Shown in pieces: positions 2,795 through 15,172 of a stretch of 40,899 nucleotides of DNA. The position numbers and the translations under genes are program-made. Within the stretch, counting starts at the first letter, position 1, and every line of letters begins with the position of its first letter. The notes below the pieces were generated by a model that worked only from the letters and a program-made list of their open reading frames with translations, was not told the origin of the DNA and ran no database searches. The DNA comes from a virus (lineage: Duplodnaviria > Heunggongvirae > Uroviricota > Caudoviricetes): the IMG/VR virus record IMGVR_UViG_2778261393_000006. The stretch is one strand, 5' to 3'.

Positions 2795-5387
2795 TTGCAT
2801 ATTCCTTAGCCCAGCGGGGCAGTGATAATGTCTTAATAGCTGGCCATTCATCGGTATTCAGGCAGTCAGACAGGGTTCGCAGATTGCGGTGATATTCCTG
2901 TTGACCTGCCAGTTTTGCTTCTTCGCCCATCATGAAAATTTCAACCGGATAACGTCCGCATTCAATAGTTGTGCTGGCAACCAGAAAAACGAAAGTTGGC
3001 TGCACTCCAAACAGTGCTTCATAACCGTCACTGTAGAATGCATCCTGAACGTGATAGCGGTAGTCGTAATAAGCGGTTTTGAATCGTTGAATATCCGCCG
3101 TAGTTTTCACGTCCATGATCCAGTGAAATTCAGGGATAATTTTGTCCGGACGGCACCGACACAAAATTCCTGTTTCAGGATCTTCCCAGTAAATTGATGA
3201 TTCAGCGTGTCCGGCGCTTTCAACAAGCCATTGCCCCAGCGGCAAAGCCATAACGCTTTGATACATGAGTTCAATTTTCCGGCCTTCTTCCGCAGTGATA
3301 ACCGTTTTTCCTGTGCTTGCGCATTCCATCAGAAACGCTTTCTCTTCTTCTTTTCCGGCGTTTGTACGGCGGTTAAATTCAGGTGCTACGATAAAGCGGT
3401 TACTGAATTCTTCCGGTTCAAGTACCCGGCAGTGGAAAGCAGTTCCTAAATCGAGCGTTTTTGTCTTTGTGGTGTCCACGGGGGCATTTTTACGCCACAA
3501 ATATAGTGCCGGAGTATCAGCAATGTCATCGAGCTGAGACTTACTGATACCGGGACCCGCGTGGTAATTCTCATTCGAAATTCCGTAATAAATACCTGGC
3601 TCTATGTCTTCTACGATTACGGGATCTGCGACTTCGCCAGTTTCATCACTGCAATCGTGATGCGGATCGCTGCCAGCATTCTCATTGTGCGGATGTTCAG
3701 CGCCTTCCATTTCCTCCGGATCATTTTCCTTAGCTTCAACCTGACTCTCTTCATCGAATGTTTCCTGGTATGTTGCGTCGCCCATCACCGCACCACAGTC
3801 AGGGCAGTTATCCCCGCCAGTCTGGCCGCAGGCATTGCAGGCTATTTCCGGTTCCTGTTGCACTACTGGCTCAGGTTGATTCATATCTGGGCTGGTTTTT
3901 TCCGTTTCTGGCTGGTTCTGGTACACACAATCGCGAGTCTGGATCCCCTTTACCCATTTCGGATCGTTCGGGTCGCTAATTCCGTCAACAAATTCACCAC
4001 GTGATGCAGCAAGCAATTTATCGGCATCGACAGGATTTTTTGATGGAATGTTTTTCCGGGCTTCATGGAGTTCTGCCCGCAGTTCCTGATATTTCGCATC
4101 AACAGAATTTACCTGTGACTGAGCATCCAGCGGCTGCGTGTCCTGATGATGTTCAGTTGCGTCCGGTTCCATTGTTTCAGCCTCTCCCTGTTCAACTGCC
4201 GTTGTTCCAGATGGTTGCGGTTTTTCTTCATCATCCTGTTTTCCTTCTTCTGTTACTCGCTGCGGCATCGGGGCAGAGGAGCGACCGCAGGCAATATCCA
4301 CGATTTCCGGATCAGGGTTGGCATGATCGGTTTCAGTCAGTACTTTGTTCAGATATTCAGTGACGTGCGCGGGGATGACCTCGATCCCAATTGGTGCTTC
4401 TTTTACGGACGCAACCACGATGGCGCGGGAATAATCCAGCCCGCCAGGCATGGTGATGAATTTGTCGCGGAAAACAGAAAAGGGCGGTTTATTTTCAGCG
4501 ATAATTTCCTCAATGCGTTTAGCGTGTGCCGGATGAAGGTTATAGATGTCCAGATCCATTGAACGGGCCAGTACGCCAGTGGCTACGTCGCGCGCCAGTG
4601 ACGTCAGATCGTGTACGAAACCTTCGCCGCGATCGGTGAGGTTTCCGCCGCCAGCATTAGCACCGGAAGCCGTGCGAGTGATGTGTGAAACACGATTACC
4701 CTTCATCCACTCTTTTGTCAGCAGTCCTCGATCGGTGTAGTCAGCGTTCAGGTATGCTTCGAAAAAAGCAGTTATCAGTCCCAGGTTTGAATTACCAGGA
4801 TTAGGGAAAACTTTGTCAGTGTCACGAACCAGTTTGTGGAGTTCGCGAATTTCCAGCGGGTCGAGCAGGCTGGTTTTGTGGGAAACAGCCAGGGCAGTAA
4901 CAGCCGGTAGTTCTTCAGCCCGAGCAATGTGTAATGCCTGGAGTCCGTCGCGTGAAACGTGCGTTACCGGTTTTTCGCTGCCGTGTTGAGCAAGCCAACG
5001 AATGGGCAGTTCCTGGCCAGAAATTGGGAGTAGCATATTCTCCTCAATCTCAGTCATGTCTTCGCCGTTGACGTTGGTATTGCCTTGATAATGAGCGTTG
5101 TCTGGTGCTGCTCCCGGTTTTAGTTCCCATGTCATGGAGTCTTTGCTGAGTTGATAGCGTTCACTCCAGGTAAAATCGATCTCACCTTCAGCGGGCAGGT
5201 CATTAACGACAGGAAAATTCGTGGCAACAGCTTTAAAATAGCTGCTCAGTTTTTTACCTGACTTAACGATCAGGTAGTCCAGAGTGGCACAGGTCGATTC
5301 AAAATCGTTGCTTGCCCACAGGACGACGTCAGGTTCACCGGATGATTTTTTCGCTTTCCGTAACAGGAAGAGTGGTTTTGTGCTCAT
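2787..5387 (-). CDS. recE: Exodeoxyribonuclease VIII RecE
   Basis: 866-aa ORF, length and sequence consistent with RecE; acidic low-complexity middle region and C-terminal nuclease domain; immediately upstream of recT. Confidence 0.9.
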
Positions 5388-9796: not shown

Positions 9797-10543
9797 ATGA
9801 AAAATATTGCGACAGGCGATGTTCTTGAACGTATCCGCAGACTGGCCCCGTCACATGTAACCGCGCCATTCAAGACGGTAGCGGAGTGGCGCGAGTGGCA
9901 ACTTTCCGAAGGCCAGAAACGTTGTGAGGAGATCAACCGTCAGAATCGTCAGTTGCGGGTGGAAAAAATTCTGAATCGCTCTGGCATCCAGCCATTGCAC
10001 CGCAAATGCTCGTTTTCGAATTACCAGGTGCAGAACGAAGGGCAGCGATACGCGTTGAGTCAGGCGAAATCCATCGCTGATGAACTGATGACCGGGTGTA
10101 CAAATTTTGCGTTCAGCGGAAAACCTGGTACCGGGAAGAACCACTTAGCGGCAGCTATCGGGAATCGCCTGCTGAAAGACGGTCAGACAGTGATTGTGGT
10201 TACCGTGGCTGATGTTATGAGTGCCCTGCACGCCAGCTATGACGATGGGCAGTCAGGCGAAAAATTTTTGCGGGAACTGTGCGAAGTGGATCTGCTGGTT
10301 CTTGATGAAATTGGCATTCAGCGCGAGACGAAAAACGAGCAGGTGGTACTGCACCAGATTGTTGATCGCCGGACAGCGTCGATGCGCAGCGTGGGGATGC
10401 TGACAAACCTGAACTATGAGGCCATGAAAACATTGCTCGGCGAGCGGATTATGGATCGCATGACCATGAACGGCGGGCGATGGGTGAATTTTAACTGGGA
10501 GAGCTGGCGTCCGAATGTCGTCCAGCCAGGAATTGCGAAGTAA
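9797..10543 (+). CDS. ydaV: DnaC-like helicase loader ATPase YdaV
   Basis: 248-aa ORF with Walker A ([15 protein letters not shown]) and Walker B (LLVLDEIG) motifs; recognised as YdaV, IstB/DnaC family. Confidence 0.85.
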
Positions 10544-10565
10544 TTTTTACCGGGAGAAAAATTTA

Positions 10566-11327
10566 ATGGAGACTGTTTTTGACGCACTGAAAGCAATGGG
10601 AAAAGCCACATCCATAGAACTTGCTGCGCGACTTGATATCAGTCGTGAAGAAGTGCTGAACGAACTATGGGAACTGAAAAAGGCTGGTTTTGTTGATAAA
10701 AGCGCGTACACCTGGCGTGTGGCTGATAACAACGTTCAGCAGGAACAGCCAGCGCAGGCAGAACTGCCGGAAGAAATCACCACAGCAACAGTAGCGAAAA
10801 TCTCAGAGTGCGATTTAACCGCGACGATTGAACAACGAGGACCACAAACGGCTGATGAGCTGGCTACATTGTTTGGTACCACATCACGCAAAGTGGCTTC
10901 AACGCTGGCAATGGCAATCAGCAAAGGTCGTCTGATTCGCGTAAATCAGGGCGGTAAATTTCGTTACTGCATACCGGGCGATAATTTACCAGCAGAGCCG
11001 AAAGCAGCATCGGTAGCGGAAACTGATGGTAAGGCCTTTCCTCAGACCGCAGGTGTTGCGTTACCAGTACAGGAGGCTGCAACACAGGAAGATATTAAAA
11101 CAGAAACTGTGGCGGACATTGTGCAGTCGCTGCCATCGTTTACTGAAACGCGAGCGGATGACCTGGTTTTACCATCACTGCATATGGCAAACCGCGAACT
11201 GCGTCGGGCGAAAAATCATGTCCAGAAGTGGGAGCGTGTCTGCGCCGCGCTGCGTGAGTTGAACAAGCACAGGGATATTGTACGACAGATTACTGATTCT
11301 TCCCGCCATGTTGCATCGGAAAAGTGA
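10566..11327 (+). CDS. ydaW: Rac prophage protein YdaW-like (N-terminal winged-helix-like region)
   Basis: Track ORF 10515-11327; start preferred at ATG 10566 ([13 protein letters not shown]...) preceded by GGGAGA; N-terminal part matches my memory of the YdaW fragment in K-12. Confidence 0.6.
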
Positions 11328-11342
11328 TTGCCGGAGGCACCT

Positions 11343-11765
11343 ATGGCAAAAGTATTTACACCAGAAGAGCGAGAAAAAATTAAAGGACAGGTTGTTGAAC
11401 TTGTACCTCTGAGCGGTCGCGAGACGTTACGGCAACTGGAAGCCAAGACAGGTGAGACAAGATATCTGATGAGTGTTCTCGCCAGTGAGCTGGTTGCCAG
11501 TGGCGATGTATACAACTCTGGTTACGGGTTATTCCCGTCTGAACAGGCGCGTAAAGACTGGCAAAACGTCCGCAAAAAACTATCGAGGGCAAAGGTGAAG
11601 AAACCTGCTGTAGTTGATCCGGACCTTATCTGGTCATTACCAGACGGAGAAATACGCCGCTATGACAGGCGTCTGAATATAATCTGTCGCGAGTGCCGGA
11701 AGAGCGAAGTCATGCAGCGTGTACTGGCGTTCTATCAGGGTAATTTTCAGGATGTGCTGTTGTGA
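11343..11765 (+). CDS. Hypothetical phage protein (141 aa)
   Basis: ORF 11328-11765; start preferred at ATG 11343 (MAKVFTPEER...) preceded by GGAGG; C-terminal CRECRK motif; no family recognised. Confidence 0.5.
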   Translation: MAKVFTPEEREKIKGQVVELVPLSGRETLRQLEAKTGETRYLMSVLASELVASGDVYNSGYGLFPSEQARKDWQNVRKKLSRAKVKKPAVVDPDLIWSLPDGEIRRYDRRLNIICRECRKSEVMQRVLAFYQGNFQDVLL

Positions 11766-11927
11766 GCCAAATTAACAATCAGGGAACTGCGTGAACTGAA
11801 AGAGAAATCATAATCCAAATCTGAATAATTAAATTTAGCACTGTAAATAAAATTTAATCCTTAACCGGAGGGGGGGGGCTGCACCCTCAAAATATTAGGA
11901 GGCGGCCCGAAAGGGCGGTAATGAAAA

Positions 11928-12431
11928 ATGACTGAATTAACCAAAAAGCAATTAATCGAAGAAGCTAAATTAAAAATAGCGATTGAGAAATGCCACCCCA
12001 ATTCAGGGATGGCACGGGTAGAGGGCGAATTATTCAAAATTGCTCTGGCATCGCTGGAAGCAGAGCCAGTTGGTGATTTTTATGAATACAAACCGGATGA
12101 CTGGTATCAGCGTTCGGCTGGAGATAAAGCGCCAAAATGGACGCCACCCTATGCCGTTTTTCCAGCGCCCGTAGTGCCGGAAGAAATGGATTTGCTTACA
12201 TGCCATCTCGATGGTGTAACTGAAACATATGCTGAGGGATGGAACGCTTGCCGCGCTGCCCTGCTTCAGGGCAAAGGGGAGCCCGGGAAACAAGTTCGCG
12301 AATTGACAATGCTGGTTAAACAATTGGTTAGTCAACTGAAGAAACCGAAACCGGGCTGCAAATTGCCGGATAAAGTGATGGACTACCTGGAGCGAAGCGG
12401 ACTTATAAGCGTGGAGGATGTTTTACGATGA
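11928..12431 (+). CDS. Hypothetical phage protein (167 aa), possibly Ead/Ea22-like
   Basis: ORF with upstream AGGAGG; N-terminal coiled-coil-like region; family assignment is a weak recollection only. Confidence 0.5.
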   Translation: MTELTKKQLIEEAKLKIAIEKCHPNSGMARVEGELFKIALASLEAEPVGDFYEYKPDDWYQRSAGDKAPKWTPPYAVFPAPVVPEEMDLLTCHLDGVTETYAEGWNACRAALLQGKGEPGKQVRELTMLVKQLVSQLKKPKPGCKLPDKVMDYLERSGLISVEDVLR

Positions 12432-12511
12432 CCTGGCCTGAAGCATTCACAACGGTAGGAATTGCGATGGCGGTGGCGCTGGTGGTGTATTCGATTTGCC
12501 GCTGGGGTTGA
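12428..12511 (+). CDS. Candidate 27-aa hydrophobic peptide (MTWPEAFTTVGIAMAVALVVYSICRWG)
   Basis: Not in track; ATG overlaps the stop of the upstream gene (ATGA), single predicted TM helix; ends 9 bp before IS5. Confidence 0.3.
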   Translation: MTWPEAFTTVGIAMAVALVVYSICRWG

Positions 12512-12520
12512 TAATACTAA

Positions 12521-13715
<1,195 letters not shown>

Positions 13716-13742
13716 CTAAATAACCAGCCCTTATGGGGCTGG
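13716..13742 (-). terminator. Rho-independent terminator-like hairpin downstream of the KilA-N gene
   Basis: Stem CCAGCCC / GGGCTGG (13724-13730 / 13736-13742) with 5-nt loop; on the minus strand it is followed by UUAUUU; IS5 is inserted directly beside it. Confidence 0.4.
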
Positions 13743-13750
13743 CTAATCAT

Positions 13751-14524
13751 TTAGAACTGTTCATTGCCATCGAGGTTAGGTAGCATAATTTTTTCAATCA
13801 AGGCGAGAGCCTTTTTGTCCCGGTCAGCGAAGTATTTCGGGGCATATTGCGGCAACCAAATATTGTTAAAATGTTCTTTGAAATCTGCTAAATATTCATT
13901 TGGGTACAGCCTTGCAGGGTATACGCGACCATCGGGATATTCATGGTCATAGGTAGGGAATGTTTTGGGTTCTACGTTTCTATTATCTCTTAACCATTGT
14001 GAAAATACTCTTCCTTGTGAAATGTCAGGAACCATTTTTTCTGGGAGTGTGTACCCTGCTTGTTCAAGAGGTGCAACCAAGTTGAATGTCAGTTCATTAA
14101 GAATAGAAAAGTGCGTGTGAGGAATTCTACTACGATTAACCATGTACCGTTTTAAATGTACAGGCATTTCTGCTGTAGTTCTTTCCCCTGACATCCATTC
14201 ACGAACCCATCTTGAAACCTGGACTGCAAATTTGGGCGATAGCCACTGCGCTAGATTAATAGCGATGTCAGGATGCACCCATGTCCCTTGGTTTTCAGGT
14301 CTTCCACCTTTAAATGATTGAATTAACTCCGATATGGGAATTCCCATATCGCGTGATAATTCGTCAAAAAACTCTTGAGTAGTTTTGAGTCTAGTGTAAT
14401 CAGAGAGCAGTTTGCCCGCAGTTCTACACATTGATGTGGCGTTTATGTAACCATCTTTGGCACGTAAATGTATTATTTCGCCGTCAATTTCACGAGAAAT
14501 CAAAGATAATTGAAAGGATGTCAT
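13751..14524 (-). CDS. KilA-N domain protein
   Basis: 257-aa ORF; N-terminal region (INATSMCRTAGKLLSDYTRLKTTQEFFDELS...GTWVHPDIAINLAQWLSPKF) fits the KilA-N/APSES DNA-binding domain pattern; GAGGAA upstream of ATG. Confidence 0.65.
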   Translation of the reverse strand: MTSFQLSLISREIDGEIIHLRAKDGYINATSMCRTAGKLLSDYTRLKTTQEFFDELSRDMGIPISELIQSFKGGRPENQGTWVHPDIAINLAQWLSPKFAVQVSRWVREWMSGERTTAEMPVHLKRYMVNRSRIPHTHFSILNELTFNLVAPLEQAGYTLPEKMVPDISQGRVFSQWLRDNRNVEPKTFPTYDHEYPDGRVYPARLYPNEYLADFKEHFNNIWLPQYAPKYFADRDKKALALIEKIMLPNLDGNEQF

Positions 14525-15046
14525 TGAAAATTCCTCAAGTTGGAGAGTTCTGGAACATTAAGGCGAGGTGGCAGTAATGCACCATCTGTAATCTTTTGAT
14601 ACTGACGTAATCGGACCTGATGTGCAACGCCTTGCAAGTATGTAACTCATTGAAAACGATCATTTTTATCTATTGACATCAAATGGCAAACTGTCATTGT
14701 GCGGCTATGGCAAGTGGCAAATGCTTATAAATCATATGGATATAAATAGTACAGAAAGAGTTGTTTTCTCTAGGATATGAGTATACGCCCAATGCTGATT
14801 GGTTGAATTTTGTTCTTGTTTTAAAGGGTAAGAGTTTAAAGTGTTGGCAGTGATGTATTGGATAGTTAGAATTGCTGTGGGTGCTTGAGGCTATCTGCCT
14901 CGGGCATGAACACCAAAGGTAGATAGAGAAAAGCCCCAGTTAACATTACGCGTCCTGCAAGACGTTTAACATTAATCTGAGGCCATATCTATGCGACACA
15001 TAGAGATTAGCCTCTTACGGACCGAAAGGTCAAGGAGAAGCAGGCT

Positions 15047-15172
15047 ATGAAGCAGCAAAAGGCGATGTTAATCGCCCTGATCGTCATCTGTTTAACCGTC
15101 ATAGTGACGGCACTGGTAACGAGGAAAGACCTCTGCGAGGTACGAATCCGAACTGGCAGACGGAGGCTCTGA
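15047..15172 (+). CDS. Hok-family type I toxin homologue, C-terminally truncated/divergent (possibly decayed)
   Basis: Hand translation MKQQKAMLIALIVICLTVIVTALVTRKDLCEVRIRTGRRRL (41 aa); first 37 residues match my memory of HokD/RelF, then the frame diverges and stops early; upstream leader resembles hok mRNA 5' elements; coordinates approximate. Confidence 0.5.
   Translation: MKQQKAMLIALIVICLTVIVTALVTRKDLCEVRIRTGRRRL

Follow-up and report, generated by a model that had tools for sequence, protein, structure and literature searches.

A 27-codon open reading frame in the early region of a Rac-type prophage belongs to a conserved family of phage genes for a predicted tiny membrane protein

The DNA analysed here, referred to as the window, is a stretch of 40,899 nucleotides of viral origin (Caudoviricetes; IMG/VR record IMGVR_UViG_2778261393_000006). 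It contains, between its replication genes and an IS5 element, a block of three open reading frames (ORFs), the last of which is only 27 codons long. Comparison with other phage and bacterial genomes confirmed that this small ORF is a genuine, conserved phage gene, the predicted product of which is a tiny membrane protein. The peptide family is widespread and essentially unannotated. The other two genes of the block, which encode proteins of 140 and 167 amino acids (aa), are ordinary prophage accessory content, Ren-like and Ea22-like respectively. The 27-codon gene is a well-defined target of 84 bp.

Conservation and distribution of the 27-codon gene

BLAST comparison of the 3' end of the block revealed one class of matches starting exactly at position 12428 and ending at 12507, so that the borders of the module fall on the ATG and the stop of the small ORF. 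In O157:H7 strains the unit is 100% identical, and is located behind DUF551 genes instead of the 167-aa gene. Further copies were collected by scanning IMG/VR with a 32-nt degenerate pattern, built on codons 1-11 of the ORF only. 131 matches were obtained, all but one of which (130 of 131) carry a complete hydrophobic ORF of 23-29 codons; overall, they define 36 peptide variants, encoded by 50 distinct 84-nt alleles. The same pattern was used to scan 596 Gb of GTDB genomes, producing 48 matches, about 37 of which are due to chance: the frames following these range from 12 to over 80 codons, and none fits the 27-residue family. The true members found in GTDB come from E. coli (Escherichia coli), Shigella and Escherichia sp., in addition to two tiny contigs which look like contaminants. 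Four BLAST matches, picked without using the pattern, were all found to be intact, including one where an in-frame deletion of 6 nt keeps the terminal ...ICRWG. Persistence of the frame in homologous regions, named as the test to be applied when the sequence was first read without database searches (the sequence-only reading), was therefore observed both within and outside the pattern-selected set.

The family may be described by the pattern M-x-W-P-[ED]-A-[FIL]-x-x-[VLIM]-G-x-x-x-A-x-A, after which comes a hydrophobic segment, in most cases closed by RWG. Related peptides from other phages include MTWPEAFANVGTVMAVVLVVYSICRWR, MNWPEAFTAVGVAIAVAFILYSLFRWG, MSWPDAIVTLGMVFAAAFVVYSICRWG and MSWPEAFAIVGVAMAIAAIFIFWG. 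Length variants are in frame and retain the C-terminal motif. The ATG, the Shine-Dalgarno sequence (SD) and the position of the stop are kept over the 50 alleles, even when different stop codons are used. The frame is intact in phages 933W, VT1-Sakai and PhiR12_1, as well as in P1-like and Av-05 phages. Only two disrupted copies were seen; one of them, in Shigella phage POCJ13 (L010, 1501-1581), is a pseudogene in which TGG is changed to TAG at codon 3, and an antisense coding sequence is annotated over the remnant.

The substitution pattern was evaluated over codons 12-26, located outside the search pattern. The pooled ratio of non-synonymous to synonymous changes (pN/pS) is 0.36 in the frame of the ORF, whereas the two alternative sense frames score 1.38 and 2.00; a comparison of this kind had been proposed in the sequence-only reading. 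The minimum numbers of changes at the three codon positions are 16, 14 and 27 over the same codons, and 22, 19 and 41 when the restriction to codons 12-26 is lifted.

The motif is kept, with little nucleotide similarity, in two IMG/VR contigs of 40% and 65% GC (L027 and L080), where the peptide ORF overlaps the stop or start of its neighbours, begins in the MTWPEAF or MSWPEAL manner and continues with a hydrophobic stretch. Starts of the MTWPEAF.../MSWPEAL... type, followed by a hydrophobic stretch, were also observed in two Bdellovibrionales metagenome-assembled genomes (L145 and L169) retrieved by the GTDB scan, which may represent relatives or chance matches. On the basis of these four cases, the family may extend well beyond enterobacterial phages.

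A search with the 84-nt sequence detected the unit in 1631 of 5426 complete E. coli genomes (about 30%), at 3104 places and with up to 7 copies per genome. It is also found in 181 plasmids, 155 from Escherichia, 25 from Salmonella and 1 from Klebsiella, 174 of which are non-mobilizable; most of those listed are about 85-130 kb in size, and the carriers may correspond to P1-like plasmid prophages. Among phages, the unit is located in 933W between L0139 and the sokW/hokW locus, in VT1-Sakai behind H0068, with xis and int further downstream, and in the lambdoid phages PhiR12_1 and PhiR5_1 behind 'Ea22'. It was further found in the P1-like phages SJ46 and 813R1, and in the virulent Vequintavirinae (rV5-like) Av-05 and 18-1-2. 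The gene is therefore conserved over temperate, plasmid-borne and virulent phages, and is present in the medically important Shiga toxin (Stx) phages 933W and Sakai, and in ST131 strains. No copy was detected in the scanned parts of the K-12 prophages Rac, Qin and DLP12 (the scan did not include e14), nor in lambda between int and ninC, which could explain the silence of K-12 small-protein screens.

In the phage records fetched, the upstream coding sequence (CDS) ends 1 or 4 bases inside the unit, which itself is covered by no annotated CDS on the forward strand. Six of these records show the ORF filling an annotation gap of about 84 nt, and the next gene starts 2-5 nt past its stop; genes under selection can thus reside in the apparent 'gaps' that separate phage accessory genes. 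RefSeq records produced by the Prokaryotic Genome Annotation Pipeline (PGAP) contain no CDS for the peptide in any region inspected, while an exact look-up of the peptide retrieved some entries named by submitters 'bacteriophage protein' or 'hypothetical protein'. Annotation routinely overlooks membrane proteins of such small size, several of which have since turned out to be potent regulators.

Eighteen family members, compared against Pfam, NCBIfam, PHROGs, PADLOC and PDB, gave no significant family match. The best sub-threshold results were PHROGs 4612 (E 0.011, 3 of 18 members) and 8149 (E 0.0023, 1 of 18), Pfam DUF883_C (0.029), NCBIfam KdpF (0.024) and a PDB entry with E 2.5; the matches to KdpF and to the DUF883 glycine-zipper anchor are attributable to common composition. 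A full-text literature search with peptide sequence strings retrieved nothing. Nor did tblastn with the 24-aa P1-type variant give any match, probably owing to its low-complexity filter. A database cluster in which the peptide is grouped under a 121-aa DUF551 representative turned out to result from the artificial chaining of partial sequences rather than from a fusion.

Translation signals, membrane character and possible action

In the window, the ATG of the 27-codon ORF shares the sequence ATGA with the stop of the 167-aa gene, and GGAGGA is found 9 nt upstream. The translational coupling proposed in the sequence-only reading from this arrangement agrees with the family as a whole, since 121 of 131 copies have a start that overlaps an upstream stop by 4 nt or by 1 nt. 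In 99 copies the overlap is the 4-nt ATGA, and the upstream frame runs open over 50 codons or more; in a further 22 the stop shares its last base with the ATG (TGATG or TAATG), a real upstream gene being confirmed by the deposited annotation in two of these, VT1-Sakai and SJ46. In the remaining 10 copies, upstream frames are open for 12-46 codons only. A SD matching AGGAGGT over at least 4 nt is located at -17 to -4 in 133 of 137 copies, and the match covers all 7 nt in 81. Junction sequences differ according to the class of the upstream gene (GTTTTACGATGA, GGTGAATCAATGA and GGTGAAATGATG), and none contains a slippery heptamer before the overlap. Reinitiation coupling is the simple reading, rather than a frameshift fusion; the 27-codon gene would then be translated by termination-reinitiation, using the ATGA overlap and its own SD.

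The upstream partners are mosaic EaA/Ea22-like/DUF551 proteins, fusions of MazG-like and DUF551 sequences, or coiled-coil proteins, and the operons concerned are early accessory operons, of pR or pL type, in both temperate and virulent phages. DUF551 genes also occur without the 27-codon ORF, and identical peptide alleles are found behind different upstream genes, which indicates that the peptide gene is an independent module.

The hydrophobic character of the product is a constant feature: the maximal Kyte-Doolittle mean over 15 residues lies between 1.4 and 3.0 in all variants. The peptide is predicted to form a single hydrophobic helix, in line with the single transmembrane helix noticed in the sequence-only reading. 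W3-P4 and A6 are invariant, and conserved small residues are distributed on two faces of the helix, G11/A15/S22 and A6/A13/A17, an arrangement which suggests tight helix packing. Early in the lytic cycle, the peptide would span the inner membrane once as a helix, with the W3-P4 cap and A6 at the membrane interface, while the two small-residue faces would pack tightly against a host or phage membrane protein, or against the peptide itself. A lipoprotein was also considered and rejected: in the sequence ...YSIC, position -1 is occupied by Ile, and the Cys is missing from some variants.

As to its function, a binding or modulating role, which would include the exclusion of superinfecting phages or the disturbance of a membrane-associated host function, comes close to an even chance. 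A membrane-perturbing role appears unlikely, and the toxin discussed below would account for the larger part of it. More specifically, but tentatively, peptides of this 'WPEAF' family may be common coupled inner-membrane peptides of phages, which act early on a conserved host membrane machine, for example against superinfection or membrane-associated defence, or by altering envelope physiology; this proposal is less likely than not. If correct, it would point to a gene product missing from the description of 933W, of Sakai-type Stx phages and of about one third of E. coli strains. A lead concerning envelope stress was not used: deletion of the exo-xis region of Phi24B lowers the envelope-stress genes degP and htpX (PMC10789677), and in the related phage 933W the single copy of the peptide gene is located outside that region.

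Several observations weigh against the overall reading, according to which the block is part of an early operon, with a Ren-like gene, an Ea22/EaA/DUF551-type gene and a coupled, mobile 27-codon membrane gene, later followed by an IS5 insertion. The antisense frame sharing the wobble position has a pN/pS of 0.30 and is open in 49 of 50 alleles. In the window, the minus strand of the unit (12428-12511) contains no start codon and no ORF of at least 20 aa; given the low pN/pS of the antisense frame, the choice of strand rests on the ATG, SD, stop and boundaries. The IMG/VR sample was chosen by a pattern covering codons 1-11, and includes many near-identical copies, so that its counts are not independent. 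The topology of the helix is weakly determined, with E5 on one side and R25 on the other as the only guides. The finding of the same allele behind different upstream genes argues against a dedicated upstream partner. Finally, a ribosome profiling study of enterohaemorrhagic E. coli Sakai contains no entry for the peptide in its 15 supplements; its cut-off for ORFs was 30 aa, so that a 27-aa peptide was excluded by design and could not have been reported. When these points are set against the evidence for a conserved and coupled frame, the overall reading is still considered quite likely to be correct.

The main alternative is that the peptide is a membrane-damaging toxin, type-I-toxin-like or viroporin/holin-like, which kills or depolarises the cell and thereby aids the phage or stabilises the prophage. 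The short, almost wholly hydrophobic sequence and the small residues on two faces, which fit self-association, are compatible with such a role. So is the location of the ORF a few hundred bases upstream of hok/sok in 933W, O157:H7 strain 2159, strain 504237 and pNJS001-2, whereas in the window the distance is about 2.4 kb, and IS5 and a BstA-like gene lie between. However, of the features that define a type I toxin, neither an antisense RNA nor a promoter was detected, and the position of the ORF argues against an independent unit. Rfam has no match, and thus no antisense RNA family, at 12400-12520, the only sok match (14879-15049) belonging to hok, and no promoter-like site was found on either strand between 11200 and 12700, both being consensus scans which an unconventional RNA could escape; the ORF is internal to an operon and coupled to the upstream gene, rather than being a stand-alone unit with a structured leader. 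Moreover, up to 7 copies per genome are tolerated, virulent phages, which need no addiction, carry the gene too, and no similarity to the Hok, Ldr, TisB, Ibs or Sho models of Pfam and NCBIfam was detected. A toxin is accordingly judged improbable, and a regulatory or accessory membrane peptide fits better; of the two resemblances pointed out in the sequence-only reading, to small membrane toxins and to regulatory peptides, the second was retained, while no toxin-antitoxin feature backs the first.

It is far less probable that the 84 bases act as a non-coding boundary or linker for the exchange of accessory genes, or as a RNA or DNA signal in cis, the frame being incidental. The edges of homology at the unit are indeed sharp, the mosaic genes next to it are hypervariable, and the 5' side of the cassette bears another conserved element. 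Against this stand the concentration of changes at third positions, with a low pN/pS only in this frame and in the antisense frame sharing its wobble positions, and the constancy of ATG, SD and stop position among the alleles. In addition, the members at 40% and 65% GC retain the peptide motif and not the nucleotide sequence, and no conserved RNA structure was detected in the unit (RNAalifold -2.4 kcal/mol, with 1 compensated pair). The least credible alternative, in which programmed -1 frameshifting or stop suppression would extend the upstream protein by a C-terminal membrane anchor, may invoke the position of the small ORF in the -1 frame, overlapping the upstream stop, and one database homologue (P0090) which reads through this stop, but conflicts with the variable junctions devoid of a conserved slippery heptamer, with the retention of an invariant ATG and of a strong, properly spaced SD, needless for a fusion, and with the product of the P0090 read-through, WPGLRHSQQ, which is not the hydrophobic peptide.

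The block, its neighbours and local history

The features of the region are reported in Table 1. The three ORFs, recognised in the sequence-only reading as following ydaW, are all present, on the same strand and contiguous, right behind the ydaS-T-U-V-W genes, where W is a full-length DUF1627 gene. The block, which comes after the replication genes ydaU and ydaV and after ydaW, is best explained as the distal part of an operon transcribed early and rightward in a lambdoid prophage of the Rac type.

Table 1. Features of the block and of the adjacent region (window coordinates)
Feature	Position	Strand	Remarks
ORF 1, DUF977/Ren-like gene	11343-11765	+	140 aa + stop; GGAGG 5 nt before ATG
Intergenic spacer ORF 1/ORF 2	11766-11927	+	recurrent element, G9 run, AGGAGG, GNRA hairpin
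ORF 2, mosaic accessory protein gene, PHROG 660	11928-12431	+	167 aa
SD (GGAGGA) of the 27-codon ORF	12413-12418	+	within the 3' end of the 167-aa gene; sequence reading
ORF 3, 27-codon gene for the predicted membrane peptide (MTWPEAFTTVGIAMAVALVVYSICRWG)	12428-12511	+	ATG overlaps upstream TGA
IS5	12521-13715	-	transposase 12667-13683, minus strand
GC-rich 8-bp hairpin	13724-13742	not assigned	fold of the reconstructed junction
KilA-N/BstA-like gene	13751-14524	-	convergent with the block
hok/sok locus	14879-15172	+	Rfam sok, 101 bits

The first ORF consists of 141 codons, the number originally given as its length in aa; the protein has 140 residues, the last codon being the stop. It is not an orphan, which refines the sequence-only reading, in which none of the three ORFs was recognised. 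The protein matches Pfam PF06163 (DUF977) over positions 1-134 of the 134 of the profile, with 92.4 bits against a gathering score of 22.1, as well as PHROG 142, 'Ren-like exclusion protein' (E 5.1e-44), and PGAP labels the ORF 'DUF977 family protein'. BLASTP similarity to lambda Ren is confined to a C-terminal stretch of 20 residues, 11 of which are identical (E 1e-6). An AlphaFold2 model, built on a shallow set of DUF977 homologues (at least 86% identity) and good for the N-terminal winged helix only, has a predicted local distance difference test score (pLDDT) of about 90 at residues 10-80, where a three-helix-plus-wing domain is formed. The top Foldseek matches of this model are all winged-helix regulators, with weak E-values (0.02-0.1), and the N-terminal domain is predicted to be a winged helix. 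No functional literature was found for 'LygF', the name given to a DUF977 protein in one phage record.

The 167-aa protein matches PHROG 660 (E 2.7e-50) and has 2026 database homologues in Escherichia, Shigella and Salmonella, many of which carry PF04448 (DUF551). Their alignment is a modular patchwork, where common N- and C-terminal modules enclose variable middles and a 'GWNACRAAMLQ' motif. The N-terminal '...IALASLEAEP', the central 'GWNACRAALLQ' and the C-terminal '...KLPDKVMDYL..GLISVEDVLR' modules are common to the 167-aa protein and to DUF551/EaA/Ea22-like prophage proteins. No match was found for it in PDB, Pfam, NCBIfam or PADLOC, apart from one sub-threshold, unrelated Pfam score; according to Pfam it contains neither a DUF551 nor an Ead_Ea22 domain, the modules common to its DUF551-bearing relatives being outside such domains. 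The AlphaFold2 model is of low confidence (pLDDT 56), only a N-terminal helical hairpin being confident.

Good SD sequences had been assigned to both larger ORFs. This holds for ORF 1, while for the 167-aa ORF it does so only if a hairpin shortens the effective spacing: its sole strong SD, AGGAGG at 11897-11902, is located 25 nt before the ATG. A GNRA hairpin (11903-11918) lies between the two, with a fold which is not significant when compared to shuffled sequences (z = -1.6). The spacer also contains an element (11861-11905) of the form TTAACCGGAGGG-ATTYC-TGCACCCTC...CAGGAGG, of which at least 30 fetched loci contain a copy; at L005, the only locus examined in this respect, it precedes a DUF4014/DUF551 gene pair. 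A run of nine G (11870-11878) takes the place of its loop in the window, corresponding to G7 in strain AR_0077, so that the length of the run varies. The spacer (11766-11927) has no Rfam match, and the element might be related to the prophage Pas small RNAs, reported near DUF1627 genes.

The IS5 copy is 1195 bp long, with ends GGAAGGTGCGAATAAG... and ...CTTGTTCGCACCTTCC, and is flanked by a CTAA duplication (12517-12520 and 13716-13719). It conforms to IS5, an element characterised by a DDE transposase, a size of about 1.2 kb, inverted repeats at its termini and a 4-bp target duplication of the form YTAR, and PGAP names the region 12521-13715 'IS5-like element IS5 family transposase'. It begins 9 bp past the stop of the peptide gene and parts the early operon from a downstream hairpin. 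The empty site was rebuilt in silico, by removing IS5 and one copy of CTAA. The resulting sequence has matches covering 80% or more of its length in 98 genomes; the 25 that were listed all show 100% identity from end to end. The same insertion was found in strain GN02461, the sole top match whose region was inspected. The insertion is recent. Phage vB_EcoS-666R9 (ON470614.1, 38.7 kb) is 100% identical to the window at 11900-12520, with an uninterrupted site, and its annotated gene order from ydaT to the KilA-N gene is the same as in the window, without IS5. This suggests that the Rac-type element is still able to form virions when intact.

At the ancestral junction, a hairpin of -16 kcal/mol is located 12 nt past the peptide stop, between the peptide gene and the convergent KilA-N gene. 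The minus strand offers a convincing U-tract, the plus strand a poor one: the hairpin is certainly in a position to terminate the KilA-N gene, while for the peptide operon termination at this site is no more than possible. IS5 would have arrived later, separating the operon from the hairpin it had in common with the BstA-like gene. The KilA-N protein matches models of the abortive-infection protein BstA, PHROG 6287 (2.7e-89) and PADLOC BstA (3e-21), and its gene, located between the peptide gene and hok/sok, is probably an anti-phage defence gene of the prophage. The neighbourhood of peptide gene and hok/sok recurs, as a positional observation only.

In K-12, YdaW is 99% identical to the DUF1627 protein of the window for 151 aa, then diverges into a novel tail, directly followed by rzpR, whereas the gene is intact in the window (10515-11327; the start chosen by PGAP is at 10566 instead of the ATG at 10515). 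This divergence, together with the direct passage to rzpR, indicates that K-12 Rac lost the block by a deletion inside ydaW. The absence of the block from K-12 Rac, stated in the sequence-only reading, is therefore correct.

Comparison with known systems

The 140-aa protein may be compared with lambda Ren. Its gene occupies a comparable map position, two genes past the DnaC-like ydaV, with ydaW/DUF1627 between, as ren is located after P; the PHROG is common to both, and the C-terminal motif NIICRECRKSEVMQRVLAFY corresponds to NLVFKECRQSAAMKRVLAVY of Ren. In contrast, Ren is 96 aa long, versus 140 aa here, and the similarity does not extend beyond about 20 residues. Since Ren is defined by genetics alone, the DUF977/Ren-like match does not amount to similarity with a well-characterised phage protein, a finding that the sequence-only reading had indicated as contrary to its view of the block.

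The 167-aa protein resembles EaA/DUF551 and Ea22 proteins in being a mosaic early accessory protein, and has modules in common with proteins that PGAP names 'ead/Ea22-like' or 'DUF551 domain-containing'. It differs in that BLASTP reveals no significant similarity to lambda Ea22, and in the location of its gene, which is in a post-replication (ren/nin) position, while those of Ea22/EaA lie between exo and xis.

As far as the peptide is concerned, Hok/Gef toxins, such as hokW/sokW of 933W, are similarly small, hydrophobic prophage peptides, and the 27-codon gene is often found within a few hundred bases of hok/sok. Unlike with them, neither an antisense RNA nor a mok-like leader ORF was detected, and the mRNA lacks their fold-back architecture; the peptide is half the length of Hok, is not homologous to it, and is found in virulent phages too.

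A functional analogy may be drawn with the small single-pass regulators AcrZ, MgrB, MgtS, KdpF and CydX of bacterial membranes, which are also shorter than 50 aa, consist of a single hydrophobic helix with small-residue packing faces, and often go unannotated. The peptide shows no homology to any of them, and differs in being phage-borne, as a mosaic module coupled to variable accessory genes. The 27-codon gene is an unnamed, very common addition to the known class of small phage membrane proteins.

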